From NCBI GenBank assembly GCA_016715895.1, contig JADJXH010000004.1:287522-351521 (forward strand): 64,000 nucleotides of DNA, written 5' to 3'. Below the pieces are notes generated by a model. The model was not told where the DNA came from, ran no database searches, and saw only the letters and a list, made by a program, of their open reading frames with translations. Both the position numbers and the translations under genes were made by a program. Of this stretch, positions 1 to 48,214 are shown one piece after another (the stretch's first letter is position 1; each line of letters opens with the position of its first letter). Origin of the DNA: Flavobacteriales bacterium (lineage in GTDB: Bacteria; Bacteroidota; Bacteroidia; Flavobacteriales_F; PHOS-HE28).

Positions 1-68
1 GTAATCGGAAAGCGGATCATGACGGGCGGCTTCCCCAGTGCCCGGAAGCTCATACCTCTGGACCGAGG

Positions 69-1718: not shown

Positions 1719-1786
1719 GGCGGGATCGTTGGAGCCTCAAAGCTCCAGGGCGGGCCAGACGGGCACAATAGAACCTTCGTTGACGA

Positions 1787-2458
1787 TCAGCGCCCGTAGT
1801 AGCGGTTCACCGCCTCGGTGCGGTTGCCCACATGCATCTTCTTGTAGATGCGGTGGATGCTCTGCTTCACCGTGCCCTCACTGACGCCGAACCGGTCGGC
1901 GATCTCCTTGTAGAGGGAACCTTCGGCCAGGAGCTCGAGCACGGCCATGTCGCGATCGGAAAGGCCGGCGGCGACCTGCAGTCCGCCGGCCGGTGCGGGA
2001 CGGAAGTGACGGATCACACGGCGCGCCACGGTCATGCTCATCGGGGCGCCGCCCTGATGGATGTCGAACACGGACGCGGCGATGCGCTCGGGGGATGCGT
2101 TCTTGAGGAGGTAGCCGTTGGCGCCGGCACGAAGGGCCTCGAAGACGAGCTCATCGGTGTCGTTCACGGTGTACATCATGAACTGCGCATCGGGCCATCG
2201 ATGGCGCAGCCCGATGATGCACTCGATGCCGGAGGCCCCGGGCAGGTTGATGTCCATGATGACCACATCGGGCGCTTCCTGCACGTCGGCCGTGGCCAGG
2301 ATCTCCTCGGCCGAACCGTGGACACCGCGAAGCCGGATGCCTTCGGTGGCGATGAACACGGCGCTGAGGACCTCCCGGATCACGGGGTCGTCCTCCACGA
2401 TCCGCAGGGCGATGGGCGGGCGGGCTGCCATGGGGCGAAGGTGGCCGGTGGCGGCCAT
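1787..2458 (-). CDS. Two-component response regulator, NarL/LuxR family (REC + LuxR HTH)
   Basis: REC motifs 'VVIMDINLPGASGIECI'. C-terminal LuxR-type HTH 'LSDRDMAVLELLAEGSLYKEIADRFGVSEGTVKQSIHRIYKKMHV'. Stop is 4 nt from the upstream HK gene. Confidence 0.85.
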   Translation of the reverse strand: MAATGHLRPMAARPPIALRIVEDDPVIREVLSAVFIATEGIRLRGVHGSAEEILATADVQEAPDVVIMDINLPGASGIECIIGLRHRWPDAQFMMYTVNDTDELVFEALRAGANGYLLKNASPERIAASVFDIHQGGAPMSMTVARRVIRHFRPAPAGGLQVAAGLSDRDMAVLELLAEGSLYKEIADRFGVSEGTVKQSIHRIYKKMHVGNRTEAVNRYYGR

Positions 2459-2462
2459 CCCA

Positions 2463-4301
2463 TCAAGCTAACTTTCGTTGCCCGAGGGGCACGGTGAAGC
2501 GCAGATGCGTGCCCCGCCCGACGGGAACGAGCTCCACGCCGCCTCCGATGCCGGCCATGCGCTTGCGCATGTTGGGCAGGCCATTGCCACTGGAGCCGTT
2601 CAACCCCGACAGCCCGCGGCCGTCATCGATCACCTCGATGATCAGGCCCTCTGACCACCGCAGCACCAGGGTCACCCGGGTGGCATCCGCATGCTTCACG
2701 ATGTTGTGCAGCGCCTCCTTCACGACCAGGAAACAATTGCGTCGCTCGGTGGTGCCCACGGTCAGGGACGGCCAGGGACCGTCGGCCTTCACGTCGAGCG
2801 GGATGCCGTGCTCCGCGAGGTAGGTGCGCGCGTGGTTGTTGATGTAGGCCACGAGGTCGGCGAGCTCGCCCTGGTCGTCCTGCAGGGCCCAGATGATGTG
2901 GCGCATGCTGGCCATGAGCTCCTCGGCGCGGCGGGCCTGTTCGCGGAGGAGCGCCTCCCGGTCGATTCGGCTCCCGGGCATCAGGGCCATCTCGCTGCGC
3001 AGCTTCAACCCGCTGAGGCCCACACCAAGGTCGTCGTGCAGATCGCGGCCCACCTGTTCGCGCACCCGCAGCTCGGCGATGGTCCGGTTCTGCCGTTCAC
3101 GCATCAATTCGCTCTCCGCAAGACGACGACGCGTCTTCTGCCTGCCGGAGACGAGCAGGAAGATGACCACGATCACCCCCAGGAGCAGCCCGCCGATGGC
3201 CAGGATGAAGAGGCGGACGACGCGCGCGCGATCCAGCTCGGCGGCGATGCGCTGGCGCTCCAGACGCTCCACCTCCAGGTCGTTGTCCGCGCGGAGCAGC
3301 TCGTCCTGTGCGGCCAGGCCCGACCGGATGTTGCGGGCGGTGATGGTGCTGTCGATGCGGTGCCAGTCCGCCAGATCGGCCAGGGCCCCCTGGACATCCC
3401 CCAGCTGCCTCAGCGTGGCGCTGGCCACACGAGCGAAGTTGCGCTGGGTCACCAGCCCGATGCCGGAGCGGTTCTCCAACAGGTAGGCGCGGGCGCGTTC
3501 CAATGCACGGAGCGCATCCTCCCGCCTCGCGGCGACGGCCAGCGCCCGTGCGCGCCCCACCAGCGCATCCACGCCGATGTCGTGATCGGCGTGTTCGGCG
3601 GCGATCGCGAAGGAGCGGTCATACCGGTGCAGGGCGCTGTCGGCGCGATGCCGCTGCACGGCCAGGTTGCCAAGGCCCCACCAGGCCACGGCGGCGGCAC
3701 GGCCCACCCCGGCCTCCTCGGCCAGGGCCAGCGAACGGCGCAGATGCCATTCGGCACTGCCATGCGCGCCCAGGGTGGTGAGGTAGGTGCCGAGGTTGCC
3801 ATGGATGTGGTGCAGCTCGGTGACGGGATAACGCGCTTCGGGCCGCTGCGGGAACAGCCGCAGGGCCGCCCTGAGGTAGGGCAGGGCGAGCCGGTTGTCC
3901 TGGATGTTCTCGTGCAGCAGGCCCTTCATGTTGAGGACGTTCGCCATCAGCGTGCTGTCGCCGAGCCGGTCGGCCAGCGCTCCGCACGCATCAAGGTCCC
4001 GCATGGCCTCGTTGAAGAGGCCTTCGTAGTAAAGCACCTCGGCGCGATAGCTGAGCAGGTAACAGCGCGCCTCCTCATCGGCCTGCGTGCGAACCAGGGC
4101 CTCGTTGATCAAGCGCAGCGCCGAGTCCGCGTGGAAGGCGTCCATCTGCAGCAGGATGCCCTCCATCCTGCGGTGGAGGTCGGCATCGGGAAAGGGCGGG
4201 AGCTGGCGCATGGTGCGGCCCACGCGCTGCTGCGCACCAAGCGGTGGGACCATGCCGATCAGCACGGCCACGCACATGCAGGCCCTGACGAACGCCGTCA
4301 T
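2463..4301 (-). CDS. Sensor histidine kinase (TPR-like periplasmic region, TM, HisKA_3, HATPase_c)
   Basis: Signal peptide and TPR-like helical repeats. TM segment 'VVRLFILAIGGLLLGVIVVIFLLV'. HisKA_3 box 'DLHDDLGVGLSGLKLRSEMA'. ATPase G-boxes 'VVKEALHNIVKHA...IDDGRGL...GNGLPNMRKRMAGIGG'. Overlaps the upstream RR gene by 4 nt. Confidence 0.85.
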   Translation of the reverse strand: MTAFVRACMCVAVLIGMVPPLGAQQRVGRTMRQLPPFPDADLHRRMEGILLQMDAFHADSALRLINEALVRTQADEEARCYLLSYRAEVLYYEGLFNEAMRDLDACGALADRLGDSTLMANVLNMKGLLHENIQDNRLALPYLRAALRLFPQRPEARYPVTELHHIHGNLGTYLTTLGAHGSAEWHLRRSLALAEEAGVGRAAAVAWWGLGNLAVQRHRADSALHRYDRSFAIAAEHADHDIGVDALVGRARALAVAARREDALRALERARAYLLENRSGIGLVTQRNFARVASATLRQLGDVQGALADLADWHRIDSTITARNIRSGLAAQDELLRADNDLEVERLERQRIAAELDRARVVRLFILAIGGLLLGVIVVIFLLVSGRQKTRRRLAESELMRERQNRTIAELRVREQVGRDLHDDLGVGLSGLKLRSEMALMPGSRIDREALLREQARRAEELMASMRHIIWALQDDQGELADLVAYINNHARTYLAEHGIPLDVKADGPWPSLTVGTTERRNCFLVVKEALHNIVKHADATRVTLVLRWSEGLIIEVIDDGRGLSGLNGSSGNGLPNMRKRMAGIGGGVELVPVGRGTHLRFTVPLGQRKLA

Positions 4302-4933
4302 CGACCGAAGTAGCGGTTCACCGCCTCGGTGCGGTTCTGCACGTGCAGCTTCTCGTACATGCGGTGGATGTGCTGCTTGATGGTGCCCACGGTGATGCCC
4401 AACCGCTCACCGATCTCCTTGTACAACAGGCCTTCGGCCAGCAGCGAGAGGATCTGTTGCTCCCGTTCGGTGAGCCGCGCCCCGTCCACCGGGGCCGTCG
4501 ACCGCGGCCTCAGATGCGCCACCACCCGTCGTGCGACATGGGCGCTCATGGGGCTGCCTCCACCGTGCAGCTCCCTCACCGCCTCGATGATCTCGTCGGG
4601 GGTGGCGCTCTTCAGGATGTAGCCGTTCGCGCCGGCCTTCAACGCCTCGAACACCCGGTTGTCGTCGTCGTGCACGGTGTACATCAGGAACTGCGTGCCG
4701 ACGCACCGCCGGCTCAGCTCGCGCACACAGTCGATCCCGCTCAACCCCGGAAGGTTGATGTCCATGATGGCCACCTGCGGGCAGTTGGTGCCCAGTCGCA
4801 GCAGGGCGTCCTCCGCGCTGCTGTGGGCGGTGAAGAGCTCAAGCCCCGGCTCGTCCCCGAACAGGGTGCGGAGCGTCTCCCGGATGATGGGGTCATCCTC
4901 CACGATGCTCACACGGATGGGATCGGTGCTCAT
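4298..4933 (-). CDS. Two-component response regulator, NarL/LuxR family
   Basis: REC 'VAIMDINLPGLSGIDCVREL'. LuxR HTH 'LTEREQQILSLLAEGLLYKEIGERLGITVGTIKQHIHRMYEKLHV'. ATGA overlap with the upstream HK. Confidence 0.85.
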   Translation of the reverse strand: MSTDPIRVSIVEDDPIIRETLRTLFGDEPGLELFTAHSSAEDALLRLGTNCPQVAIMDINLPGLSGIDCVRELSRRCVGTQFLMYTVHDDDNRVFEALKAGANGYILKSATPDEIIEAVRELHGGGSPMSAHVARRVVAHLRPRSTAPVDGARLTEREQQILSLLAEGLLYKEIGERLGITVGTIKQHIHRMYEKLHVQNRTEAVNRYFGR

Positions 4934-7900
4934 GCGCTGCGAAGGTCCTCCGGCCGGGTCGGACGTCCTATAGAACGAAGGTTAGGGGGGGCTTCCATCG
5001 GCACACGGAAGCGGAGGCAGGCCCCGGGGTGGTCGGGATCCGTGGAGCGCTCCAGGGTGAGCGTTCCGCCCAGGGCCGCGATCCGCCGGCCCATGTTGCG
5101 CAGGCCGTTGCCCTCGGTGGCCTCGGCGTGGGCGGGAGGCCCCGGCCCATCATCCGCGATGCGGACGTCCAGCGCCCCCTCACGCCAGGCCATCACCAGG
5201 CGCACCTGACGGGCGGCGGCATGCTTCACCACGTTGTGCAGGGCCTCCTTCACGACGAGGAAGATGTTGCGCCGCTGCTCCGCGCTCAAGGTCCGCAGCG
5301 GCATCCGCTCCTCCACGTCCACCCGCAGACGGATGCCATGCTCATCGCAATAGCGGCGGGCGTGGTTGGTGGTGTAGGCCACCAGGTCGGCCAGCTCGGC
5401 CTGGTCGGCGTTCATGGCCCAGATGATCTGGCGCATGCTGCCGATGAGCTCCCCGGCGGTCCGGGCCAGGGAGCCGAGGTGCGCGCGTTTGGCGGGGTCC
5501 TGTTCCACGCGAAGGGCCATTTCGCTGCGCAGCTTCAGCGCGCTGAGCCCGGCCCCCAGGTCATCGTGCATGTCCCCGGCGATCCGCATGCGCTCGGCCA
5601 GTACGGCCTGCTCCCGCTCGAACGCCTCGCGCTGCCGCCGCAGCCGCGCATGGAGGTAGGCCTTGAACCCGGCGAAGGCGGCCGCACCGATCGCCAACAG
5701 GGCGAGCGCCCGGAACCACCAGGTGGCGTGAAAAGGGGGCAACACCTGCACGGCCACTGCGGCCTCCTCCGGCGCCCAATGCACGCCGTCAAGGCTCATC
5801 TGCACGACGAGCTGATGCGATCCGGGGTCCAGATCGAACAGATCGATCCGCTTGGCGGCACCGATCTCCTTCCAGGCGGTATCGGCGGGAAGGACGCGGT
5901 AGCGGAAGAGCGGGACCTCACCGGGCATCACGCCGAGGCCGCCCAGTTCGAGCATCAGGGCCTTCCGGTCGGGTTCAAGGACCAGGTCCGCCGGCGCACC
6001 GAGCACGGTCGCATCACCCACGCGGTGGGCGGTGAACACCGGGACCGGCGGCAGCCCGTGTCGTTCGCGCAGGGGATCGTGCAGCAGGATCCGCGGACCG
6101 ACCCCGATGGCGATGCGGCCGTCGGGAAGCTCCACCAGGGCCCGGGAGAACGCCTGCCCGTCCAGTGCCGAGGGCAGCAGCATCGCGGCGAAGGTGGCCG
6201 CGCCCGGTGGTCGACGCGCCAGCCCCTGTGGCGTGGCGGCCCAGATGGTACCGTCCCGCGTGGCGCACAGCGCCAGGATGCGCGTGCCGGGCAGTCCGTC
6301 GCGCCGCCCGATGTACCGCTCGGATACGCCGGCCGGGTCATGCACAACCAGCCCATGCTCATGGGTGCCCAGCCACAGCAGGCCATCCGGACCCTGGGCC
6401 ATGCAGCGCACCACGCCGCCCACATGGGCGCCCGCCGCGTTCATCACGGCCGACCAGCGGCCCGCATGGAACCGGGCCAGTCCTCCGCCGTTGTTCAGCC
6501 CGGCCCAATGGCCACCGTCGGCCGTGGAGAGCCAGCTGAGCAGCATGAGGTTCGGCAGCCGCCCCCATGGACCGTCCGCGGTGTCCACGCGCTGCGCTTC
6601 ACCCGTACGCGGGTCCACGCGCCACAGCCCGCGCTGCCAGGTGCCGAGCCACAGCGCATCATCGGTGCGCTCTGCGAAGGTGAAGGCGCTGACCGCACCG
6701 TTGGGCACCAGCGCGGTGATGCCGTCGGCGGGACGAAGGGTGGCGGCGTGTACATCCAGCTCGGCCAGGCCACGGCCCGTGCAGACCAGCACGCGCCCAT
6801 CGACCGTGGCACCGAAGGCATGCACCAGGTTGGCGGAGTAGCGGACATCATCGGGCGCTCCAGGCACCTCGACCCGGAGTGCGGTGGATGCGCCGGTCCG
6901 GTGATCGACGAGGTGCACACCACCACCCTCGGTGCCCACCAGCAGCGTATCCTCTCCCCAGGCACGGATGACCGAGACCGCGAAGGGCGACGCATCGAAG
7001 GGAAGGACGGTATGCGCCTGCGCCCCCGGCCGCAGCACGGCCAGGCCCCCTGCGGTCCCGAGCAGGAACACACCGGAGCGCATCGTCCGCAGGCACCCCG
7101 CACGGGTGGATGGCGATCCGATCCCATCCGGTCGCACCTCCGACCAGGGCCCGTTCGGCGCGCGTACGAACAGGCGGTGCGTCCAGGTGGCGATCCAATG
7201 GCGGCCCTCGGCATCGAAGGTCTGGCAGCGCAGCTCGAACCGATTGGGCTGTTCCTCGACATCGGGCAATGCGGTAAGGTCGCCGGTCCGCAGGTCGTAC
7301 CGGAACAGCGTGTAGGGGCCATGCCGCATGTACCACAAGGCCTGGTCATGCACGACCGGCGCCCCGGTGGCCGAGAGGTCCGACCATGGCAGCATCGTGC
7401 TGTTGCGGTGGTCCGTCCACCGATCGGTGGCCGCGTCCCACGACGCGATGCCCCGGGCCGTGGCGGCCCAGATGGTGGCCCTCGGTGCATCCCAGAAGAG
7501 CGAGGAGTTCGATCGCATGCGGCCGGCTGGTCCCTCCCCGGGTGGACGGTCCTGCACGCTGTGGAGCCGCCCGTTCCGCGGGTCGCCACGGAAAAGCCCC
7601 GCCTCGGTGACCACCCAGAGCAGGGTGTCGCCCACGGCCACCACCTGGCGCATGCGGTTGGCCTGCAGGGCGTCGTTGCCCGAGGCCGTGACCCGCACGT
7701 TGACGAAGGTGCCGGAGCGGGGCACGAACCGGGACAGCCCGCTCATGGTGGCGAACCAGAGGGTGCCATCAGGCGCCTGGTCGATGCAGTTGACCTGATC
7801 ATGCGCCAGGCTGCTGCTGTCGACCGGGTCATGATGGAACGTCCGCACACGGGTCCCCTCCAGCCGGGCGAGGCCATCGGTGGTGCCCACCCAGACGAAC

Positions 7901-8044
7901 CCATCACGGTCCTCGAAGACGGCGTGCACCTCGTCGGACGGCAGGCCCTGCTCCACACCGATACGGTCGAACAGCAGCTGGGCGTCCATGGCGAGGACCC
8001 TCAGCAAGGTGGCGATCAGCAGGATGGGACGCATGCGGGCCGGG
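4930..8044 (-). CDS. Hybrid-architecture sensor histidine kinase (periplasmic two-component-regulator beta-propeller repeats + Y_Y_Y + HisKA_3 + HATPase_c)
   Basis: The ORF track extends to 9183, but the plausible start is the ATG giving 'MRPILLIATLLRVLAMDAQLLFDRIGVEQGLPSDEVHAVFEDRDGFVWVGT', which is the typical beginning of Reg_prop proteins. Many 'DG.LW.GT..GL' propeller repeats. TM 'WWFRALALLAIGAAAFAGF'. HisKA_3 box 'DMHDDLGAGLSALKLRSEMA'. HATPase 'VVKEALHNVVKHA...DDGPGPP...GNGLRNMGRRIAALGG'. Confidence 0.8.
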
Positions 8045-8106
8045 CGGAAGCGCACAGGGCAAAGCTCGGCAAGCGGGACACCCGGGCGCGGGTCTATTTT
8101 TCGGGC

Positions 8107-9093
8107 ATGTTGACCGACCGGCACGGCCGCACGCACCGCAGCCTGCGCATCAGCATCGTGGACAAGTGCGACCTGCGCTGCACCTACTGCATGCCGGAGG
8201 ATCAACATTTCCTGAAGCGCGAGGAGTTGATGACCCGCGCGGAGATCCTCACCATCGCACGGCTCTTCGTGGAGCGCTATGGGATCGCCAAGATCCGGCT
8301 CACCGGAGGCGAACCACTGGTGCGACCCGATGTGGTGGACATCGTGCGCGACCTTTCGCAGCTGCCGGTGAAGCTGGGACTCACCACCAACGCGCTCAGT
8401 CTGCACAAGCACCTGGATGGGTTGATGGATGCCGGTCTGAAGGGGGTGAACGTCAGCCTGGACACCTTCGATGCGGATCGCTTCCGGAAGATCGCGCGAC
8501 GCGATGGTTTCGACACGGTGCATGCCAACATCCTGCTCGCCCTGCGGAAGGGCCTCCGGGTAAAAGTGAACATGGTGGTGATGCGCGGGGTGAACGACGA
8601 CGAGCTCCTGCGCTTCGTGGAGCTCACCCGCGACCACGACCTGCACGTCCGTTTCATCGAGTTCATGCCCTTTGCGGGCAATCAATGGGGCCGCGATCGC
8701 GTGTACACCTACGCCGAGATGCTGGGCCGCATTGGCAGTGCGCATGCCTTCGAGAAACTGAACGACGACCCGCACAGCACGGCCAAGGCCTACCGGGTAC
8801 CGGGCTGGCCCGGCACCTTCGCGGTGATCAGCACGGTGACGGAGCCCTTCTGCGGCACGTGTGACCGGCTGCGGGTGACCGCGGAGGGCAGGATGCGCAA
8901 CTGCCTCTTTGCCCGCGAGGAGACCGACCTGCTCTCCGCCCTGCGCCGTGGAGAGGACATCGCGCCCTTGATCGAGGCGAATGTGCTGGCCAAGCACGCC
9001 ATGCTCGGCGGCCTGCCGCCCTTCAGGCCCGAGAAGCAGGAGGAGGTCCTGCACGACCTGAGCGAACGGCCGATGGTGGCGATCGGGGGATAG
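8107..9093 (+). CDS. moaA: GTP 3',8-cyclase MoaA (radical SAM; Moco biosynthesis step 1)
   Basis: Motifs 'ISIVDKCDLRCTYCMP' (CxxxCxxC radical-SAM cluster) and C-terminal 'FCGTCDRLRVTAEGRMRNCLF' (second cluster). 328 aa, typical MoaA size. Confidence 0.9.
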   Translation: MLTDRHGRTHRSLRISIVDKCDLRCTYCMPEDQHFLKREELMTRAEILTIARLFVERYGIAKIRLTGGEPLVRPDVVDIVRDLSQLPVKLGLTTNALSLHKHLDGLMDAGLKGVNVSLDTFDADRFRKIARRDGFDTVHANILLALRKGLRVKVNMVVMRGVNDDELLRFVELTRDHDLHVRFIEFMPFAGNQWGRDRVYTYAEMLGRIGSAHAFEKLNDDPHSTAKAYRVPGWPGTFAVISTVTEPFCGTCDRLRVTAEGRMRNCLFAREETDLLSALRRGEDIAPLIEANVLAKHAMLGGLPPFRPEKQEEVLHDLSERPMVAIGG

Positions 9094-9095
9094 TT

Positions 9096-9131
9096 CATGT
9101 GCACATGTGCTCATGAGCACATGTGCACATG
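9096..9131. terminator. Perfect 36-bp palindrome between the convergent moaA and NAP-like genes (candidate bidirectional terminator or protein-binding site)
   Basis: CATGTGCACATGTGCTCATGAGCACATGTGCACATG is its own reverse complement. It lies exactly between the moaA stop (9091-9093) and the minus-strand gene stop (9134-9136). Confidence 0.5.
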
Positions 9132-9133
9132 CC

Positions 9134-10156
9134 CTAGAGTTCCTGCTCGTAGTAGATCTTGTAGAACTTCCGGCCCTGGTCATCCACCCCCCGCTCGATC
9201 TTGTTGCGGTCGCCGTGGATGTAGATGTGGAAGTTCTTGTCCAGTTTCAGCACGCTCTTGAACACACGGGCCTGCTTCTTCACGGCGTCGGCGCTGATGG
9301 CGAAGCGGTCCTCCAGGTCCACGGCGCGCTCCTCCTGGAAGCGGTCGCCGAAGCGCTCGAAGGAGCCGATCACCTCCTCGCTTTGGAACACCTCACGGGC
9401 GAAGGAGCTCCGGTCGAACTCGGTGTTGTCCTTGAAGTACTGGACGGAGCGGTTCAGCAGGTCGATCTGGTCGGCCTTGGGGATCTCGTAGTCCTGCGGC
9501 AGTTGCTCGGTGATGAACGAGCGCGTCATCTCCAGCAGGTTATTGGTGCTGTTCACGTGGTCCTGTTTGGCACGGAGCCCGGCGAAGGCCTGCTGCCAGA
9601 ACCCGCTGCGCGGATCGTCATCGATCACCAGCACGGTGTGCTCACCCGGGGTGAAGAGCACCAGCAGGGCCTGGTCCGGCCTGCGCCCCCCCAGCCCGCG
9701 TTTGAGGCGCATGCCGATGTGGCCCCCACTGACCTTGCTCTCCAGGAAGACCTCCTTGTCGTCGAACTTGAGGATGCCCAGCGCATCATGCACCGCCCCG
9801 GCCAGCTCCACGGCGTGGAAGCGGACGACGAAGAGGTCACCGCCGCGCACCTCATGCTCCGCGGCGGTGTCGATGAGGAGCTTGGCGATGGCCCGGGACA
9901 CCCCGACCAGGTCCTTCGCCTTCGCCGCCTTGGCGCACAGGGCCTGAAGGGCATTGCCAGCACCCTGTGCTCCGTCGCCGAAGGTGTGGGTGACGGCCAC
10001 CGAGGCGAAGGGCTTCAGGAAGAGGCGGCGCAGGAACTCCTGCTCCTCGGGCCCCTGCAGCACGGCGCTCACGTCGGAGAGCACGCTGGGCGATCCATCC
10101 GTGCCCACCCGGTGCAGCACCAATTCCTCCACCATCGCCTCCTTGCCGTTGATCAT
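9134..10156 (-). CDS. Nucleoid-associated protein, NdpA/YejK-like (PF04245-type)
   Basis: 340 aa. Layout resembles NdpA ('ELVLHRVGT' near the N-terminus, 'GGDLFVVRFH' block, charged C-terminal half). The family call is from memory of YejK, not from a search. Confidence 0.45.
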   Translation of the reverse strand: MINGKEAMVEELVLHRVGTDGSPSVLSDVSAVLQGPEEQEFLRRLFLKPFASVAVTHTFGDGAQGAGNALQALCAKAAKAKDLVGVSRAIAKLLIDTAAEHEVRGGDLFVVRFHAVELAGAVHDALGILKFDDKEVFLESKVSGGHIGMRLKRGLGGRRPDQALLVLFTPGEHTVLVIDDDPRSGFWQQAFAGLRAKQDHVNSTNNLLEMTRSFITEQLPQDYEIPKADQIDLLNRSVQYFKDNTEFDRSSFAREVFQSEEVIGSFERFGDRFQEERAVDLEDRFAISADAVKKQARVFKSVLKLDKNFHIYIHGDRNKIERGVDDQGRKFYKIYYEQEL

Positions 10157-10214
10157 GCGTTGCGCGCCTGGCCTGTTGGCGAAGGCGAGGCGGCGAAGGT
10201 ATTGGGGAGGGCTC

Positions 10215-11144
10215 TTACAGCGTGGCCTTGACGCCCGTGCGATAGTCCGTGGGGCGCACGTTCAGCGCCCGCTCCAACTTGCTGCTGTCGAAGCGGTAGT
10301 CGTGCTCGAACTGGTACATCATCTCCTTGTTCTCGCGCAGCACGGGCATGACCAGGCCCATCAGCGAGAGCATCCAACCCGGTGCCACCTGGATCGCGTA
10401 GGGCTTGCCGGCCAGCTCACAGGCCATGCGCACGAACTGCTCGCCGGTCATGTCCTCTTTGCTGGTGAGCGCATGCCACACCTGTCCGTAGGCGGAAGGC
10501 GTATTGCCCAGCAGCGCCACGCTCCTACCAGCATCCGGCGTGTAGGTGAAGGTGTGCACGGCCTTGGCATTGCCCACCCACTGCGGGGTCTTGCCCGCCC
10601 GCAGCCGCTCGAACACCGTGGCGTGGGTGAGGCTCAGGGTCGCGTTCGGTCCGTAGAAGTCGGCCGCCCGGATGATCATGGCCTGCAGCTCGCCACGCTT
10701 CACCTCGTCCATCAAGGTGGTGGCGATGCGGGCCCGCACTTCCCCTTTCCGGCTGCAGGGGTTGTAGGGCGTGTCCTCGGCCATCACGCCGTCCACCCGG
10801 CCGTAGGCGTAAACGTTATCGAAGAAGACCAGCTTTGCGACGTGGCGCTTGCAGGCATCGATGGTGTTGCGCATGACCCGCGGCCATTGGTCGGCCCACA
10901 CGTTGGCATCGTACTTAAGCCCGGCCACCAGGTAGGCGACGTCGCTGCCCTTCACGGCCTCGCTCAAGGCATTGGCATCCAGCAGATCGGCGGAGAACAG
11001 CTCATCGGTGGCGTTCACCTGCTTCGGGTGGCGGCTCACCTGACGGACCTTGTCCGTGTACTGGGGTAGGAGCATGGAAAGTTCGTTGCCGATGACGCCG
11101 TTGGCGCCGAGGATGGTCTGCATGGCCGTGCGTTTGAGGCTCAC
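10215..11144 (-). CDS. NAD(P)-dependent epimerase/dehydratase (SDR) family protein
   Basis: N-terminal Rossmann motif 'ILGANGVIGNEL'. Overall SDR/NmrA-like length and composition. Sits between the Moco genes and the NAP-like gene. Confidence 0.6.
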   Translation of the reverse strand: MSLKRTAMQTILGANGVIGNELSMLLPQYTDKVRQVSRHPKQVNATDELFSADLLDANALSEAVKGSDVAYLVAGLKYDANVWADQWPRVMRNTIDACKRHVAKLVFFDNVYAYGRVDGVMAEDTPYNPCSRKGEVRARIATTLMDEVKRGELQAMIIRAADFYGPNATLSLTHATVFERLRAGKTPQWVGNAKAVHTFTYTPDAGRSVALLGNTPSAYGQVWHALTSKEDMTGEQFVRMACELAGKPYAIQVAPGWMLSLMGLVMPVLRENKEMMYQFEHDYRFDSSKLERALNVRPTDYRTGVKATL

Positions 11145-11213
11145 AAGCTAGGATCGCCCCAGGCGCATCGCCCAACCGTTCCTGTAATTGACAGTGGATG
11201 GATCACACCCTGA

Positions 11214-12131
11214 TCACATCCCATGCCTGAACGCATGTTCCTGCACCTTCACCACATGAAGCACGAACGGAAAAAGCGCATCCATCGTCTCCTGCGCCCC
11301 ACGCGTGGATCCCGGCAGGGTGATCACCAGCGTTCTTCCGATCATGCCGGCGATGCCCCGGCTCATCATCGCCCAGGGCATGCGCTCCTGGCCATAGCTG
11401 CGCGCGGCCTCCATGATACCGGGTACCTCCCGGTCCATCAGGGGTGCGATGGCCTCGGGCGTGCGGTCGCGGGGCGAGAGGCCCGTGCCGCCTGTGGTGA
11501 GGATGAGGTCCAGGCCCTCGGTTGACCATGCGTTCACCCTGTTGGCGATCTGCTCAGGCTCGTCAGCGCACACGGCCTGCACGGGCACCTCAACACCCAG
11601 CTGCGCCAAGCGTTCCACGATCGCCGCGCCCGCCTTGTCCTCCTTCTTCCCACCGGCCACCCCATCGCTGATCACCAGCACGGCCGCCTTCACGGGCGTG
11701 TCGAAGCGGTCCTTCCAGTCGCTCTTGCCGCCCTTCTTCTCCAGCAGCCGGATGCCCGCGATCACCACGCCCTTGTCGATGGGCTTGAGCATGTCGTAGA
11801 TGGTGAGGGCCGCCACGCTGGCACCGTGCATGGCCTCCACCTCCACCCCGGTGCGGTAGATGGTGCGCACCCGCATGGTGACGACGATCTCCATCGCCCC
11901 CACCTCGAACGTGCACGCCGCATGCTCGATGGGCAGCGGATGGCAATCGGGGATCAGCTCGTGGGTCTTCTTTACGCCGAACAAGGCCGCCACGCGGGCG
12001 CTCTCCAGCACATCGCCCTTGGGCACCTGCTTCCCGATAACTGCGGCGATCGTCGCAGAATTGGAAACGGTCACCAGCGCGGTCGCCGTGGCCTCGCGCA
12101 GGGTGGTGGGCTTGTGGGTGATGTCGATCAT
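11214..12131 (-). CDS. moaC: Bifunctional MoaC (cyclic pyranopterin monophosphate synthase) / MogA-MoaB-like molybdopterin adenylyltransferase fusion
   Basis: N-terminal half has MoaC motifs 'KGDVLESARVAALFGVKKTHELIPDCHPLP...TGVEVEAMHGASVAALTIYDMLK'. C-terminal half has MogA/MoaB motifs 'AAVLVISDGVAGG...LILTTGGTGLSPRD...LPGSTRGAQE'. Start placed at the internal ATG (MIDITHK); the ORF track begins 23 codons earlier. Confidence 0.8.
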   Translation of the reverse strand: MIDITHKPTTLREATATALVTVSNSATIAAVIGKQVPKGDVLESARVAALFGVKKTHELIPDCHPLPIEHAACTFEVGAMEIVVTMRVRTIYRTGVEVEAMHGASVAALTIYDMLKPIDKGVVIAGIRLLEKKGGKSDWKDRFDTPVKAAVLVISDGVAGGKKEDKAGAAIVERLAQLGVEVPVQAVCADEPEQIANRVNAWSTEGLDLILTTGGTGLSPRDRTPEAIAPLMDREVPGIMEAARSYGQERMPWAMMSRGIAGMIGRTLVITLPGSTRGAQETMDALFPFVLHVVKVQEHAFRHGM

Positions 12132-12212
12132 GAATGCAGGCGAATAGCGAATGGTCATTGGAGAATGGAACCAGGATCGGCACCATTCGCTAATCGCCAA
12201 TGACCATTCACC

Positions 12213-12716
12213 CTATCCATTGGATTTCCAAATATGCCCACCACCCTCCACGATCTCCTTCCCGAAGATGGGCAGCTCGGCCTTGATGCGGTCCACCACC
12301 CAGGCCACGGCCTCGCGCGCGGCAGCACGATGCGGTGCGCTGGCGAAGACCATGAAGCACAGCTCGCCGGCCTTGATGGTGCCCAGGCTGTGGTGCACAT
12401 GCAGACAGGTGATGTCCGGCCATCGGGCGAAGGCCACCTCGCGGATGTCCGTCATGCGCTCCAGGGCCATGTCCCTGTATGCGGTGTACTCGATGGCGAC
12501 CACCGTTGCCGCAGGCGGATGACCATCCGCCCCTGCAACGTGGTCCGCGCGCACCTGGCCCAGGAAGATCTCGTGGGCACCGATGTCCGTGCGGGTGGCA
12601 TGCCTGGCGATGCTCGTGGCGATGAAGGCCGGTTCGATCGGCCCCTCCACGAAGATGTCCCGCTTCTTATGCGCGGATCTTGTCGCCTCGGGATCCATCG
12701 GTGTCATCTGTGCCAT
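12213..12716 (-). CDS. moaE: Molybdopterin synthase catalytic subunit MoaE
   Basis: 'LHVHHSLGTIKAGELCFMVFASAPHRAAAREA' matches the MoaE signature region. About 160 aa. Immediately downstream of moaD. Confidence 0.8.
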   Translation of the reverse strand: MAQMTPMDPEATRSAHKKRDIFVEGPIEPAFIATSIARHATRTDIGAHEIFLGQVRADHVAGADGHPPAATVVAIEYTAYRDMALERMTDIREVAFARWPDITCLHVHHSLGTIKAGELCFMVFASAPHRAAAREAVAWVVDRIKAELPIFGKEIVEGGGHIWKSNG

Positions 12717-12723
12717 CTGCGGA

Positions 12724-12948
12724 TCAACCTCCGGCGAACGGGGGCAGCACGGCGATCTCCTCGGTGCCTGTGAGGGGCATGTCGCCGTGCTGGATCCTCC
12801 GGTCCACGGCGATCGCGTAGCTCAACGCGGCCAGGCCTTCGATGCGCTCCGCCAGCCGGTCCTTCAGTTCGCTCGTGCTGCTGGCGGACAGCTCGATCCT
12901 GTGCGTACCCGCGCGTTCCGCGATCAGTCCGAAGAGCAGCACCTCCAT
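12724..12948 (-). CDS. moaD: Molybdopterin synthase sulfur-carrier subunit MoaD
   Basis: 74-aa product 'MEVLLFGLIAERAG...IAVLPPFAGG' with a C-terminal Gly-Gly. Start trimmed from the ORF-track start to the internal ATG. Confidence 0.75.
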   Translation of the reverse strand: MEVLLFGLIAERAGTHRIELSASSTSELKDRLAERIEGLAALSYAIAVDRRIQHGDMPLTGTEEIAVLPPFAGG

Positions 12949-12952
12949 GGGC

Positions 12953-13519
12953 TCAAAGATCGGCCGGCGTATTGATGTTGCGGAAAAGATCGGGCGGCCA
13001 GCCCCCACGCCCCGGGGTCACGTCCACGGAAGCCCACCGGACCCGCTCCAGCGCATCGGTGAGCTTCAGGTCGCCGGCGTCGGCCGCCTGCTCGAACGGC
13101 GACAGGCACCTGAGGTGGTACGCCGCCGCGAGCGGCTCGATGCCGCGATCGTGCACGGGCACCGCCGCATCCACGGATGCGTCGCAATGGGCCTTCAAGC
13201 GAAGGATCAGGCGGTCGTTCACCGCAGGCATGTCGCAGGCCAGGGCGATGATGCGGCCATAGCGGCTGCGTTCAAGCGCCGTGATCAGACCGCCCAGCGG
13301 GCCCAGACCGGGGCGGCGGTCGCCGATGGTGCGGGCATGCGGATGACCATGCCGGTCGACATCACCGATGATGAGCAGCTCCCGCGCATGCGGGCGCAGC
13401 AGCTCCACCGCACGGTCCAGCAGCGTCGACCCGTCCAGTTCGATCAGGGCCTTGTCCGTGCCCATGCGGCGGCTGCGGCCGCCGGCCAGCACCACACCGG
13501 TCCAGGTCCGATCGTTCAT
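12953..13519 (-). CDS. mobA: Molybdenum cofactor guanylyltransferase MobA
   Basis: 'GVVLAGGRSRRMGTDKALIELDGSTLLDRAVELL' nucleotidyltransferase fold motif. Start at the ATG (MNDRTW) overlapping the moeA stop (ATGA). Confidence 0.8.
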   Translation of the reverse strand: MNDRTWTGVVLAGGRSRRMGTDKALIELDGSTLLDRAVELLRPHARELLIIGDVDRHGHPHARTIGDRRPGLGPLGGLITALERSRYGRIIALACDMPAVNDRLILRLKAHCDASVDAAVPVHDRGIEPLAAAYHLRCLSPFEQAADAGDLKLTDALERVRWASVDVTPGRGGWPPDLFRNINTPADL

Positions 13520-14691
13520 GGCAGGGGACGGATCACGCGCACGCGGTCGCCGCTGTTGAGGCGGGTCCGCGCGGCCTCCAGGTGACACAGGACGGCGCCG
13601 CCCACCAGGCCGCCGAGCAGATGGGAGCCTTCATCCGGCAGCAGCTCCACCCGGCCGTCGCGCACGCGCGCCGCGCGGAACTCGTCGCGTTCGCCCTTGC
13701 GCTCCACGGATCCAGCCAGGGGCAGCAGCTCTTCCGCAGGACCGGGATGGCGGGCACCCTGCAGCGCGCGGAGGAAGCCGCGCACATACACCTCGAAGAG
13801 CACCAGCACCGCGCGGGGGTTGCCCGGCAGCCCGATCACGGGCGTTCCGTCCAACGTGGCGAAGAGCATCGGCTTGCCCGGTTTCTGGCGAACACCGTGG
13901 AAGTGGAGCGTGGCGCCCAAGTGCTCCAGCACGGGCCGCAGCAGGTCGTGCTCCCCTACGGAGGCTCCGCCGGTGGTGAGCACCAGGTCAGCTCCGGCAC
14001 AAGCCGTTCGGAGCGCTTCGCACAAACCGTCACGATCATCCTGCACGGCGATGGGGGGCGAGGCCATGGGCGCGCCCACCTCCTGAAGCGCCGCCTGGAG
14101 CATCACCTCATTGCTGCTGTGGATCCGCCCTTCGGCGGCGCCATCGAGCGTGATGAACTCACCCCCGGTGCGGACCACGGCCACCCGTGGTCGTCGAGCC
14201 ACGGTCACCGAACGGATCCCCGACGAGGCCAGCAGACCGATGGCGGCGGGGTCCAGGCGGTCGCCGCGATGCAGCAGCAGGTCGCCCTCGCGATAGCCCT
14301 CGGCACGGCGACGGATGTTGGCGCCGGGCGTGGGAGGTCCGACCAAGGTGCGGACCTGCCCGGCGGTCTCATCGCAACGCTCCTGCATCAGGACGGCCAC
14401 CGCGCCTTCGGGCACGCAGGCGCCCGTGAAGATGCGCGCGCACTCGTCCGCACCGATGGGCCGGTCCAGCGTGTCCCCCGCGGCTACGGTGCCGATGCGT
14501 CTCCAAGGGCCCGGGCCGGAGCCCACGGCGTAGCCGTCCACCGCGCTCATGTCGAACCGCGGAAAGGCATCGGTGGCCACGACATCCGCGCACAGGAAGC
14601 GACCCACGGCACCGGACAGGGGTGCGACCTCCGCGGGAAGTGCGCGGACATGCCGCATCAGCGTGGCCCGGGCCTCCTGTACGTCGATCAT
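13516..14691 (-). CDS. moeA: Molybdopterin molybdotransferase MoeA
   Basis: 391 aa from 'MIDVQEARATL'. MoeA motifs 'DMSAVDGYAV', 'LVLTTGGASVGEHDLL', 'GLPGNPRAVLV'. The upstream extension in the ORF track is rejected. Confidence 0.85.
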   Translation of the reverse strand: MIDVQEARATLMRHVRALPAEVAPLSGAVGRFLCADVVATDAFPRFDMSAVDGYAVGSGPGPWRRIGTVAAGDTLDRPIGADECARIFTGACVPEGAVAVLMQERCDETAGQVRTLVGPPTPGANIRRRAEGYREGDLLLHRGDRLDPAAIGLLASSGIRSVTVARRPRVAVVRTGGEFITLDGAAEGRIHSSNEVMLQAALQEVGAPMASPPIAVQDDRDGLCEALRTACAGADLVLTTGGASVGEHDLLRPVLEHLGATLHFHGVRQKPGKPMLFATLDGTPVIGLPGNPRAVLVLFEVYVRGFLRALQGARHPGPAEELLPLAGSVERKGERDEFRAARVRDGRVELLPDEGSHLLGGLVGGAVLCHLEAARTRLNSGDRVRVIRPLP

Positions 14692-15443
14692 GCCATCAGC
14701 AGCTTGGTGGAGGCGAGCAGAAGAACGGCGCCCAGCACCTGCCGCAGCCGGAGGTCGGGCAGCACGCGGGCACCCAGTGTACTGCCGATCAGCGCACCGG
14801 CCAGCGCGGCGAAAAGCCAACCGATGTGCAGGCCGGCCGGCGGGCCGACGGCGTGAAGCCCGACGAGCCCTGCGGCGCTGTTCACCAGGATGAAGGGTGC
14901 ACTGACCGCGGCGGTGCGATGGGCATCGCCCCAACGCAGCAACAGAATGGCCGGGCTCAGCAGCACGCCGCCGCCGATCCCGACGAGGCCGGAGACCAGA
15001 CCGATGGCCGCACCGAGGACGGGCGCACCCAGCGGATGAACGCGGCGCAGCGCAGTGGCCGGCGCTCCGAACACGCCCAGGAGGCGCAAGGCCGCCAGCA
15101 GCAGGCAGAACGCCAGAAGGCGCTCGTAGGTCTCCGCCTCCAGGGTGATCCGCGCTCCGAGGTAGGCCATCGGTACGGACAGGAGCGCGAAGGGCAGGAA
15201 GAGGCGCCATGTGAAGTGGCCGGCACGCGCGTATTGGACCGTGGCCACGGCGCTCACCAGCAGATTGAGCCACAGCGCGGCGGGGCGCATGTCCGCCGGG
15301 GCCTGCCCCATCAGGGCCATCAGCGCCAGGTAACCGCTGGCCCCACCGTGGCCCACGGAGGCGTACAGCAGGGCGATGATGGCGATGCCAAGGGCAGCGG
15401 GCATGGCGGTCAGGTCGGCTGCGGTGGCGCGAACCGGGTCCAT
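14688..15443 (-). CDS. TauE/SafE-family (sulfite exporter-like) integral membrane protein embedded in the Moco operon
   Basis: Seven to eight hydrophobic helices. Duplicated 'GxGGGxxxxP' TauE signature: 'VGHGGASGYLALMALMG' and 'LVGIGGGVLLSPAILLL'. An alternative start (MPAALG, 15404) would remove the 34-nt overlap with moeB. Confidence 0.65.
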   Translation of the reverse strand: MDPVRATAADLTAMPAALGIAIIALLYASVGHGGASGYLALMALMGQAPADMRPAALWLNLLVSAVATVQYARAGHFTWRLFLPFALLSVPMAYLGARITLEAETYERLLAFCLLLAALRLLGVFGAPATALRRVHPLGAPVLGAAIGLVSGLVGIGGGVLLSPAILLLRWGDAHRTAAVSAPFILVNSAAGLVGLHAVGPPAGLHIGWLFAALAGALIGSTLGARVLPDLRLRQVLGAVLLLASTKLLMA

Positions 15444-16078
15444 CGGCTCCCCGCGTACAGGTCCAGGGCACCGTTCTCCACAGGTCGACCGGCCATGAGG
15501 TCGCCCACCCGTTGCTGCATGCATGCGCCCACGGCCTCCAGAACCTCCAACGGCACCTGGCGCATGTCGCACTCGTCCTGCCCCGGACCCGGCCGTCCGG
15601 CGAACACCTGCACACGCGTAAGCGACGGATCGCCTTGACCGTCCGGCGCATGCAGCACCAGCACCTGGCCCTCGCTCCCATGCACGGCTCCGCTGACGAG
15701 GGGGATCCGATGTTCCATGCATACCCGATCGATCAGGGTCCGCGCATGCACATCGTCCGTGCAGTCCACCACGATGCTGTGCTGCTCGACCAGGTTCGGC
15801 AGCGAGTCCGCGTCAGCGAAGGCGTCCACCACGTCGATGAGGGTGCCCGGCATGGCCTGGCGCAGCCATGCGGCGGCCACGGCCACCTTGGGCCGTCCCA
15901 GGTCCACCGGCGCGAAGAGCGGCTGGCGCTCCAGGTTGTGCGGCTCCACCCGGTCGCCGTCGACCAAGGTGAGTCGCCGGACCGGCAGCCGGGCACAGCG
16001 TTCCAACAGCGCATGGCCCAACCCGCCGATGCCGATCACCAGCACAGTGGACCGGAGCGGTGGAGCCGTGGAGCGCAT
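15410..16078 (-). CDS. moeB: ThiF/MoeB-family E1-like adenylyltransferase (MoaD/ThiS activating)
   Basis: 'VLVIGIGGLGHALLERCARLPVRRLTLVDGDRVEPHNLERQPLF' is a Rossmann ATP-binding signature. No rhodanese domain. Start uncertain (ATGs at 16078, 16108, 16147). Confidence 0.75.
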   Translation of the reverse strand: MRSTAPPLRSTVLVIGIGGLGHALLERCARLPVRRLTLVDGDRVEPHNLERQPLFAPVDLGRPKVAVAAAWLRQAMPGTLIDVVDAFADADSLPNLVEQHSIVVDCTDDVHARTLIDRVCMEHRIPLVSGAVHGSEGQVLVLHAPDGQGDPSLTRVQVFAGRPGPGQDECDMRQVPLEVLEAVGACMQQRVGDLMAGRPVENGALDLYAGSRWTRFAPPQPT

Positions 16079-16165
16079 GCCGCCAAAGTAAGCCGACGGA
16101 ACAGGCATCAAACGAAGGAGCCTCCGGCGCGCGGCCGGAGGCTCCATTCACTCAATGACGATCGA

Positions 16166-18979: not shown

Positions 18980-19071
18980 GTGAATGTTCGTGGTTGGGTG
19001 GTTCGGTTCCTTGCGGATCCCCCAAAGCTAGGCGGCTACCGCAGGCCGGACAACTGATCGTTGGCAGGTGC

Positions 19072-20193
19072 TTAGGATCCTGCCGCGGGTTCGAGGGCGC
19101 GTTCCCAGGCTTCGGTCTGTCGTCGGATGCTCTCCTGATGGACGGCGTTCATGAAGGCTTCGACGAAGGCCGGGCTGAGGCCTGAGCGGCGGCCCAGGTC
19201 GTGCTGGGCGGCCATGATGCGTTCCCAGCGCTCGGGCTGCAGGATGGCCACGTTGTGCTCCTTCTTGTACAACCCGATGCGTTCGGCGATGTCCAGGCGC
19301 TCGGCGAGCTTCTGGGCGATGTCCGCGTCCAGTTGGTCGATCTGATCGCGCAGTTCGTCCAAAAGATCCCGCAACCGGGGGCCCGGGGCTGCTTCGCGAT
19401 GCGCCAGACCGGCCAGAAGCGCGCCCAAGGCCTCAGGGGTCACCTGCTGATCGCCATCGCTCAGGGCGTGCTCCGGATCGGGGTGCGCCTCCACCATCAG
19501 CCCGCTGAAGTTGAGATCGAGCGCCTGCTGGGCCACATCGGCAAGCCGGTCGGGGTGGCCGGCGATGTGGCTGGGGTCGCACACCATGGGCAGCCCCGGG
19601 CAGGCGGCCATCAGCCGGATGGGGAACTCCCACATCGGGGTGTTGCGGAACGGGGTATGCCCCGACCAACTGAATCCGCGGTGCACGGCGGCCATGCGTC
19701 GGATGCCGGCGCGGTGCAGACGCTCCAGCGCACCCACCCACAAGGGCAGGTCCGGGTTGATGGGGTTCTTCACCAGCACGGGCACGTCCACCCCGGCAAG
19801 GGCGTCGGCGATGGCTTGGACGCTGAACGGATTGGGCGTGGTGCGGGCCCCCACCCAGAGCAGGTCGATCCCCGCCTTGAGCGCGGCCTCCACGTGGTGG
19901 GGTGTCGCCACCTCCGTGGCCACCAGCAATCCGGTGGCATCGGCCGCGGAACGCAGCCAGCGCAGCGCGGGTTCGCCGGCCCCCTCGAAGGCGCCGGGCC
20001 GGGTGCGCGGCTTCCACACCCCGGCGCGCAACACCCGTACACGGGGGGCATGCCGCCGGATGCCTGCGGCCACGGCCATCACCTGCTCCTCGCTTTCGGC
20101 ACTGCACGGTCCCGCGATGTGCAGTGGACGCTCCAAACCCAGACCCCATTGGTCCAGGGGGAGCGGGTCCAGTTCCGGCGTAAGGCGGCTCAT
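19072..20193 (-). CDS. Bifunctional 3-deoxy-7-phosphoheptulonate (DAHP) synthase / chorismate mutase
   Basis: N-terminal ~270 aa of a KDO8P/DAHPS class I-beta TIM barrel ('LHIAGPCSAESEEQV', 'VCDPSHIAG'). C-terminal ~90 aa helical AroQ-type chorismate mutase ('LRDLLDELRDQIDQLDADIAQKLAERLDIAERIGLYKKEH'). Confidence 0.8.
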   Translation of the reverse strand: MSRLTPELDPLPLDQWGLGLERPLHIAGPCSAESEEQVMAVAAGIRRHAPRVRVLRAGVWKPRTRPGAFEGAGEPALRWLRSAADATGLLVATEVATPHHVEAALKAGIDLLWVGARTTPNPFSVQAIADALAGVDVPVLVKNPINPDLPLWVGALERLHRAGIRRMAAVHRGFSWSGHTPFRNTPMWEFPIRLMAACPGLPMVCDPSHIAGHPDRLADVAQQALDLNFSGLMVEAHPDPEHALSDGDQQVTPEALGALLAGLAHREAAPGPRLRDLLDELRDQIDQLDADIAQKLAERLDIAERIGLYKKEHNVAILQPERWERIMAAQHDLGRRSGLSPAFVEAFMNAVHQESIRRQTEAWERALEPAAGS

Positions 20194-40282: not shown

Positions 40283-40302
40283 CGACGGGCGACCGTTGCT
40301 GC

Positions 40303-40329
40303 GAAGGGCCGGGGTTCTCCCGGCCCTTC
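40303..40329 (+). terminator. GC-rich hairpin 21 nt after the stop of the first giant gene (candidate intrinsic terminator or attenuator)
   Basis: GAAGGGCCGGG-gttct-CCCGGCCCTTC: 11-bp perfect stem, extendable to 13 bp. No U-tract follows, which is common in high-GC genomes. Confidence 0.4.
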
Positions 40330-48207: not shown

Positions 48208-48214
48208 GCAGGCC

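Follow-up and report, generated by a model that had tools for sequence, protein, structure and literature searches.

We describe here a perfect 36-bp palindrome located at positions 9096–9131 of a 64,000-nucleotide stretch of contig JADJXH010000004.1 (assembly GCA_016715895.1, from a Flavobacteriales bacterium), hereafter called the window, in the spacer between the convergent genes moaA and a gene for an NdpA/YejK-type nucleoid-associated protein (the NAP gene). Comparison of this spacer with its counterparts in related genomes showed that the palindrome is a strain-level special state of a conserved tandem array with a period of 8 nt and a CATG core in each unit. The array, its conservation, the variation in its copy number and its folding energy were all established here by observation. 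To explain them, we propose that an octamer array resembling the STRR repeats of cyanobacteria was made perfect by template switching, and that the resulting stem defines or protects the 3′ ends of both mRNAs and is not a canonical intrinsic terminator; we give this explanation about an even chance of being correct. The features on which it rests are the following.

9096–9131, no strand: perfect palindrome of 36 bp, CATGTGCACATGTGCTCATGAGCACATGTGCACATG, equal to its own reverse complement and made of 4.5 tandem units.
9091–9136, either strand as RNA: stop-to-stop spacer, folding into a perfect 16-bp stem with a 4-nt loop (CAUG) and a 3-bp extension by the stop codons across a 2x2 mismatch.
8107–9093, plus strand: moaA (GTP 3′,8-cyclase), with its stop codon TAG at 9091–9093, Pfam domains Radical_SAM and Mob_synth_C, and a TIGR02666 score of 331.9 bits (cut-off 284).
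9134–10156, minus strand: the NAP gene (PF04245 NA37, E value 7.1e-20), with its stop codon at 9134–9136.

An earlier reading made from the sequence only had reported the palindrome at these positions, its construction from CATGTGCA-type units around a TCATGA center and its location between the convergent stop codons of moaA and an NAP-like gene, and each of these observations was correct. The same reading had placed 3 nt between the palindrome and either stop codon; its adjacency to both stops held, but the gaps measured 2 nt on each side (TT and CC), with the palindrome beginning at the third base past the moaA TAG. Pairing between the two stop codons extends the symmetry to a 46-nt quasi-palindrome (9091–9136). 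Read in order, the units within the palindrome are CATGTGCA, CATGTGCT, CATGAGCA, CATGTGCA and a final CATG, and the unit can be written as CATGNNNN. Tandem Repeats Finder described the palindrome as 4.5 copies of period 8 with the consensus CATGTGCA and a score of 58, the highest among the short-period (6–10 nt) repeats of the window, and it was the sole array of at least four units in the 64 kb (0.005 expected from shuffles). A pure array of CATGTGCA is automatically self-complementary, as taking the reverse complement of the unit only offsets it by 4 bases. However, the two central departures from the unit, T at 9111 and A at 9116, are complementary to each other, so that the symmetry exceeds a mere by-product of the repeat.

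The palindrome could be explained neither by chance nor by assembly. The second-longest perfect palindrome in the window measured 14 bp, which is 22 bp shorter, the longest across 100 shuffles of the window measured 24 bp, and palindromes of 36 bp or more are expected about 5.6e-6 times per window. These values exclude a chance origin. Three independent short-read Logan contigs (from SRR11674018, SRR11674019 and SRR11674021) carried the coding sequence of the exact NAP protein, and a fourth (L004) that of the exact MoaA protein. All four contigs (L001–L004, with ends corresponding to window positions 9102 and 9125) stopped exactly 30 nt inside the palindrome, beyond its center. These ends probably arose because successive 31-mers in a perfect palindrome are mutual reverse complements, so that a de Bruijn graph with k = 31 would branch there and unitigs would stop. 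Furthermore, the convergent adjacency of moaA and the NAP gene was also present in an independent metagenome-assembled genome (MAG; locus L015, CALMPI010000043.1). The palindrome is thus no assembly artefact, with the qualification that the contigs from the NAP side and from the moaA side overlap by only 24 nt, so that the exact length of its middle rests on the assembly of the window. The interpretation of contig ends should take into account that assembly with k = 31 is reproducibly interrupted by perfect palindromes exceeding k in length.

A search for further copies of the palindrome or its half-site had been suggested by the sequence-only reading. Within the 64-kb window it yielded none: a 12-mer of the half-site matched only itself, and no second copy of the palindrome was present. 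When the palindrome was used as a blastn-short query, only orthologous arrays were matched.

These orthologous arrays were examined among 80 loci from species-representative genomes, 80 loci from metagenomes, and several loci obtained by exact-protein look-ups (L numbers below denote individual loci). In seven lineages, the window and six relatives, a period-8 CATG array extended from the NAP stop codon to the moaA stop codon, as listed here with percent identities of the NAP protein to that of the window unless stated otherwise.

Window: 4.5 units.
L015 (95% nucleotide identity over 5 kb): 3.5 units, CATGTGCG, CATGTGCA, CATGGCCA and CATG, with no perfect palindrome.
L005 (91%): about 6 units.
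L017 (78%): about 10.5 units.
L019 (78%): about 11 degenerate units.
L025 (69%): 4–5 units.
L063 (57%): 2.5 units.

The number of units therefore spans 2.5 to about 11 across lineages and differs even between genomes that are 95% identical. Within the arrays, conservation was concentrated in the core: in 55 units from 11 array segments of 10 lineages, the C, A, T and G positions of the core carried 1.4–2.0 bits, and the other four positions carried 0.2–0.5 bits. Between the window and L015, a manual count on the alignment gave no core differences at 16 positions and four differences at the 12 spacer positions, together with one 8-nt indel, for flanking genes with a third-codon divergence of 10–12%. 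Decaying cores (GACG and CACG) were found in L019, indicating that the constraint on CATG is real and not absolute.

The array was not present in all relatives. The 15 closest of the 80 metagenome loci (58–79% NAP identity) had no CATG array, and several of them had other hairpins; in two lineages with 88% and 86% NAP identity (P0002 and P0004), the locus was rearranged and the array absent. There was no spacer at all in L011, where the stop codons overlap as CTAG, and only 4–7 nt separated the stops in L029 and L034, while other relatives filled the NAP-moaA spacer with unrelated sequence. Three further CATG arrays were located elsewhere near moaA in related loci (L021, L023 and L034). That of L021 adjoins an apparent remnant of the moaA 3′ end. 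Those of L023 (6634–6669) and L034 (6061–6080) occupy the divergent spacer between moaA and tag (DNA-3-methyladenine glycosylase I), whose start codon is contained in the final CATG of the array; period-8 CATG arrays thus occur elsewhere than at the 3′ ends of genes.

We also asked whether CATG is in some way peculiar in this DNA. With 340 occurrences in the window and 200 expected (1.7-fold over), CATG was not depleted, which rules out CATG avoidance or an oddity of restriction sites. Other short words did show departures: CTAG was nearly absent (9 observed, about 200 expected from base composition), as is common in many bacteria; TTAA, TATA and ATAT were strongly depleted, and GATC was 2.2-fold over expectation. 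A CATG-specific class of arrays in viruses was likewise rejected. Viral contigs contained 93 loci with CATG-core arrays as compared to at least 120 loci with GTAC arrays, which served as the control, and the viral CATG arrays, being no commoner than the control, are generic octamer repeats.

The folding of the spacer was evaluated in both orientations. The 46-nt spacer RNA had a folding energy of −28.9 kcal/mol on the plus strand and −31.8 kcal/mol on the minus strand (z about −6 to −7), with no shuffle as stable, and as single-stranded DNA the spacer had −19.5 kcal/mol. Against full composition-matched shuffles, z was about −10 for the window and for L017 and −2 to −4 for L015, L019 and L025, and the folding of the L063 array was indistinguishable from such shuffles. 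The periodic self-complementary cores alone accounted for −10 to −15 kcal/mol in 36 nt, a hairpin of moderate stability. Hairpins of other kinds occupy the same NAP-moaA spacer elsewhere: L020 has unrelated ones of −38 and −44 kcal/mol, and inverted repeats were seen by eye in L317, L319 and L320.

From these observations we infer a template-switch origin for the palindrome and, on grounds of physics and position, an effect at the level of RNA. In the model that we propose, the palindrome is the present state, in this strain, of an array of the unit CATGNNNN with a period of 8, and some members of this Flavobacteriales clade have such an array throughout the stop-to-stop spacer that separates moaA from the NAP gene. 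Since CATG is self-complementary, any core could pair with any other core; replication slippage would alter the number of units, and template switching at the cores would copy one arm onto the other. Together, slippage and template switching may have converted an imperfect array, like that of L015, into a perfect palindrome centered on CATG. Template switching would explain why the symmetry is perfect, why the central changes mirror each other and why CATG stands at the center, and it is documented to correct imperfect inverted repeats preferentially to perfect ones (PMC5941160; PMC7202029; PMC8604942). Either transcript entering the spacer would then be predicted to fold a stem of 16–19 bp (−29 to −32 kcal/mol) just past its stop codon. 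This stem may act as a shared 3′-end structure that blocks 3′-exonucleases and pauses or partly stops RNA polymerase, and would constitute a non-canonical bidirectional 3′ hairpin that lacks a U-tract. There is a precedent for part of this model in the cyanobacterial STRR, which are hairpin-forming short tandem repeats in intergenic spacers and for which transcript stabilization has been proposed (PMC2670836).

Several results weigh against this explanation. Covariation could not be relied upon, as unit indels make the alignment unreliable, and in its place we used core-preserving shuffles in which the CATG cores were fixed and the spacer letters shuffled. Of the arrays tested, two beat these shuffles, the window (z −5.3) and L017 (z −4.8), and the other eight did not, indicating that the long hairpin is not the conserved property; the long perfect stem is a sporadic extra, and only this strain and L017 turned the array into a long hairpin. 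No T-run (at least 5 T in 8 nt) was present 3′ of the stem on either strand, where the flanks are CCCTAGAG (plus) and AACTATCC (minus). Additionally, the stem starts 2 nt past the stop codon. From the known size of ribosome footprints, a ribosome terminating there would cover the 5′ arm of a stem at that distance. Finally, a terminator is not needed at this position, as other convergent pairs mostly lack a hairpin and several relatives lack the spacer. On a rough, GC3-based gene map, the genome is compact, and most other convergent pairs in the window overlap or are 5–14 nt apart without a hairpin, the exceptional pair having a 202-nt spacer that contains the hairpin 56238–56265. Removal of the palindrome would leave the window with a spacer of 4 nt, as in L034.

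The sequence-only reading had most simply interpreted the palindrome as a bidirectional intrinsic terminator. The part of this claim that stood is the very stable hairpin formed on both transcripts, a 16-bp stem with a 4-nt loop lying 2 nt after each stop codon, as intrinsic terminators have a stable stem-loop within a few tens of nt past the stop. The canonical terminator did not stand. In addition to the lack of a T-run, no A-tract was present 5′ of the stem on either strand, and a consensus terminator scan of window positions 1–20000 listed five sites, among which the palindrome did not appear. Other hairpins of the window (16117–16145, 40301–40331 and 56238–56265) have GC-rich stems of 12–13 bp with weak T-runs or none, so that hairpins without a U-tract are not unusual in this genome; the stem of the palindrome, at 16–19 bp and 50% GC, is longer and less GC-rich than these. 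A literature search on terminators in Bacteroidetes returned nothing specific.

The palindrome lies at the margin of a molybdenum-cofactor cluster (moeA, mobA, moaD, moaE, moaC-moaB, an epimerase gene and then the NAP gene), facing moaA. The GC content of the window is 61–71%, and one neighboring gene carries a type-IX secretion tail domain. We found 6187 homologues of the NAP protein, the nearest named ones of which come from MAGs of uncultured Flavobacteriales. The epimerase/NmrA-like gene (10215–11144, within the block 10160–11219) was polymorphic in both presence and position: it was missing in L015, which has 51 nt instead, and in L005, and it lay between the NAP gene and moaA in L011. 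In the P0004 lineage (L388–L390) the downstream region was rearranged, and by eye an apparent remnant of the epimerase gene could be seen after the NAP gene. The surroundings of the NAP gene are a hotspot of rearrangement. In L005 (GCA_963853025.1, CAWKUS010000003.1), the moa cluster is decaying at 5400–8100. Of its moaA there remains a 3′ fragment of 155 aa, deprived of the stop codon and overlapping the end of the NAP gene. The open reading frame (ORF) called for the NAP spans 477 aa and joins it to a piece of MoCF_biosynth, and only fragments are left of the histidine-kinase and response-regulator genes upstream of moaA. In L039, which derives from a long-read MAG, more than 80 nt of almost pure C follow the NAP gene (about 5030–5140), probably a homopolymer artefact of assembly.

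Short-period arrays with other cores were common in this clade. In the related loci, Tandem Repeats Finder identified many intergenic arrays of 7–10 nt units, each combining a conserved core with positions that vary, among them ACCAATC (14.6 copies), TCTGATCG (6 copies), TTTCAGC (6.6 copies) and CAACGTC (4.9 copies), with examples at L028 5395–5496, L027 5461–5508, L037 1494–1554 and 5482–5527, and L313 1458–1491. About 13 of roughly 30 such arrays lay no more than 600 nt downstream from the NAP gene; some filled the spacer to the next start codon. Similarly, the spacer between moaE and moaC-moaB contained different heptamer arrays or hairpins depending on the lineage, extending up to the start codon. 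Some of these arrays are inverted and flank a small gene, both in the window and in the NAP-moaA spacer of relatives.

48176–48728: module in the sdhA-sdhB spacer, with a PF05635/TIGR02436-type four-helix-bundle gene (ORF about 48215–48680, minus strand).
48176–48207 and 48701–48728: inverted heptamer arrays of this module (core AATGG/CCATT), extending from the stop codon of sdhA and as far as the start codon of sdhB.
12132–12212, minus strand: hairpin of AATGG-type heptamers without an ORF, between the moaE stop codon and the moaC-moaB start codon (−35.9 kcal/mol).
L036 5022–5589 and L031 about 5025–5600: NAP-moaA spacer with inverted arrays of 9-nt AATG units on either side of a TIGR02436 four-helix-bundle gene.
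L023 5024–5612: NAP-moaA spacer with a GxxExxY-type gene between inverted CGCAAAG-type arrays, and a second, empty pair of arrays nested inside.
L313 and L314: NAP-moaA spacer with CGCAAAG-type arms and no gene between them.

PF05635 is the family of the 23S rRNA intervening sequence (IVS) proteins, or S23p. The arrangement of the sdhA-sdhB cassette was kept in the relatives L391–L396. Base pairing between its inverted arrays in the mRNA could leave the gene in a loop, and the array-flanked architecture matches that of 23S rRNA intervening sequences. Over its first 19 nt, the hairpin at 12132–12212 matches exactly the left arm that the sdh cassette has in L391, L394 and L395, and it looks like an empty derivative of the sdh cassette at a second locus. 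L015 shares this hairpin, and at this position other relatives had a small conserved GTCGACC/GGTCGAC hairpin or direct heptamer arrays. Many contigs bearing a four-helix-bundle gene were only about 1–1.5 kb long, which may reflect breakage at the flanking arrays; array arms would then fragment short-k assemblies reproducibly, as perfect palindromes do.

It is unlikely, though it deserves to be stated, that the clade possesses an undescribed class of array-built hairpin modules to which the palindrome belongs. Such modules would consist of 7–9 nt units with short cores (CATG, AATG(G) or CGCAAAG) that fill the spacers at gene ends from stop to stop or from stop to start, with or without a selfish gene (PF05635 or GxxExxY), and would be exchanged as units between near-identical genomes; the palindrome would be an empty, loop-less member whose CATG cores may be read by a dedicated factor, for example a cassette protein or an RNase. 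The habit itself of placing core-conserved short-period arrays in spacers, some of them forming stems around PF05635 or GxxExxY genes within operons, is apparently undescribed. If array stems were processed like rRNA intervening sequences, they would represent a new way of cutting polycistronic mRNAs, and array stems around small selfish genes in operons are a more interesting lead than the palindrome.

Four other explanations of the palindrome were weighed. What chiefly separates the first three from the preferred one is the target of selection, which may be the hairpin, the cores or nothing at all. We regard it as possible, if rather unlikely, that the palindrome is a neutral by-product, namely a junk array reshaped by slippage and template switching in an unselected spacer, in which case its perfection would be a recent, fitness-neutral accident. 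The spacer positions of the array change at or above the synonymous rate (4 of 12 as compared to the 10–12% third-codon divergence), the unit number varies between 95%-identical genomes, long hairpins are sporadic, and the NAP-moaA spacer is missing or unrelated in many relatives, all of which suit neutrality, as do the general abundance of octamer tandem repeats (the viral CATG and GTAC loci) and the wealth of other 7–10 nt intergenic arrays in this clade. However, the CATG cores remained constant while the array spacers became saturated with changes, and a purely neutral array should decay evenly. The arrays have moreover persisted across lineages whose NAP proteins are 57–98% identical to that of the window, and where most other convergent pairs are overlapping or 5–14 nt apart, a useless insert of 36 nt is not the default. 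It is distinctly unlikely that the palindrome is instead an ORF-less member, or empty site, of the array-built hairpin modules that sometimes hold a small selfish gene in their loop, its stem being an RNase III site and the whole exchanged as a unit. Consistent with this, different array-flanked modules occupy the same NAP-moaA spacer (L036, L031 and L023, with empty arms in L313 and L314). The flanks of L025 and L036 are 92.7% and 98.9% identical, yet their entire stop-to-stop spacers were swapped (a 52-nt CATG array in the former, a 568-nt cassette in the latter). The window itself carries a PF05635 gene between inverted heptamer arrays in the sdhA-sdhB arrangement that its relatives keep, and the ORF-less hairpin at 12132–12212 matches the cassette arm of a relative at 19 of 19 nt. 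No gene-carrying module with CATG octamer arms was found, though, and a search among all the fetched loci for four-helix-bundle genes with such arms gave none; in sequence, the palindrome resembles neither the AATG nor the CGCAAAG arms. Its stem of 16–19 bp is also short for RNase III, which prefers about two helical turns; the CATG array is single in the 64 kb, and the L025/L036 swap is explicable by ordinary homologous recombination, the flank identities being unequal. A precedent for a module of this kind is the Coxiella IVS, in which a 28-bp stem that RNase III cuts encloses an S23p gene; upstream of the gene are tandem heptamers in strain-dependent number (PMC4990558).

The fixed 8-nt phase of conserved cores among variable spacers is the signature of a repeated recognition element. 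The arrays also accompany the NAP gene or moaA: seven lineages have one directly behind the NAP stop codon, and L023 and L034 have one in the moaA-tag spacer. Both observations would suit a binding array with CATG every 8 nt, recognized by a cooperative, oligomeric DNA-binding protein (MetJ-like) or by the neighboring NAP, serving as a cluster of CATG methylation, or bound as CAUG by an RNA-binding protein. We nevertheless judge this very unlikely, as in the window and the six relatives the array stands between two stop codons and not at a promoter, there is no second site in the 64 kb, CRP-like spacing is not enriched, CATG is neither depleted nor otherwise unusual, and no candidate binding protein was identified; furthermore, the other arrays of the clade have quite different cores, which argues against a common factor. 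The dimeric-protein operator entertained in the sequence-only reading found no support either: no promoter-like site was called near the palindrome, its half-site does not recur in the window, and a CRP/FNR-type operator was rejected because the pattern TGTGC-N6-GCACA, with at most one mismatch, gave six matches in the window against 5.3 expected, three of the six being inside the palindrome itself. A classical bidirectional, Rho-independent intrinsic terminator is the most improbable of these explanations in our estimate. It would account for the strong symmetric hairpin within 2 nt of both stop codons, but there is no U-tract after or A-tract before the stem, the consensus scan was silent, and the hairpin is not conserved in the closest relative.

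Further identities were ruled out. The absence of any other copy in the 64-kb window excluded a dispersed REP or MITE repeat. The dif site is a 28-bp sequence with unequal arms that lies at the replication terminus; here the arms are identical and 18 bp long and no turn in cumulative GC skew occurs near 9 kb, which excluded a dif/Xer site. A known RNA family was excluded by an Rfam scan of 6–20 kb that gave chance matches only, including one to mir-941, a human microRNA family, at 9098–9129 (31 bits, with a gathering score of 60), which is a chance resemblance between hairpins and has no biological meaning here.

Among known systems, the array under our preferred explanation most resembles the cyanobacterial STRR, which likewise consist of short head-to-tail units of variable copy number in intergenic spacers, are capable of forming hairpins, and have been proposed to function in transcript stabilization or translational coupling (PMC2670836). 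It differs from STRR in having a unit of 8 nt and not 7, in conserving only a 4-nt palindromic core with four free positions where STRR units are near-identical, in occurring at one locus per 64 kb where STRR are dispersed over many loci, and in its host, a high-GC Flavobacteriales bacterium as opposed to filamentous cyanobacteria. With bidirectional intrinsic terminators it shares a symmetric hairpin that is common to two convergent units and stands directly after both stop codons, but a U- or A-tract beside the stem is lacking. The REP and BIME elements are extragenic palindromes that are also found at gene ends and between convergent genes, and in enterobacteria they are thought to stabilize upstream mRNA; REP, however, is a dispersed, high-copy family of conserved sequence, whereas the palindrome is unique in the 64 kb and built of tandem octamers. 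The met boxes, tandem 8-bp units (consensus AGACGTCT) bound by MetJ at the promoters of its regulon, share the 8-bp periodicity, the palindromic units in 2–5 contiguous copies and the dyads every 4 bp, but no promoter, regulon or MetJ-like gene is in view here.

The intervening sequences of 23S rRNA are hairpin modules too, and their stems have short tandem repeats in variable numbers, as in the Coxiella IVS (PMC4990558). The palindrome differs from them in having no ORF, in being built of other units and in lying between protein-coding genes rather than within rRNA. Intervening sequences of this type have inverted repeats of 20–28 bp or longer around a loop, often with a PF05635 ORF, as compared to the 16–19 bp stem and 4-nt loop observed here. 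Quasipalindrome correction (PMC5941160; PMC7202029; PMC8604942) would explain both the passage from an imperfect to a perfect inverted repeat and the two symmetric central changes; it is a mutational mechanism and not a functional class, and its action here is suggested by the comparison with L015. As a single locus, the palindrome matters little, being one more gene-end hairpin without canonical terminator features in an uncultured bacterium. Its value is as a clean natural case in which, between 95%-identical genomes, a tandem repeat with a self-complementary core has become a perfect palindrome, in agreement with the template-switch model of inverted-repeat perfection. Under our preferred explanation, and likewise under every rival, the palindrome does not amount to a new kind of system; it is a modest variation on repeat hairpins that are already known.

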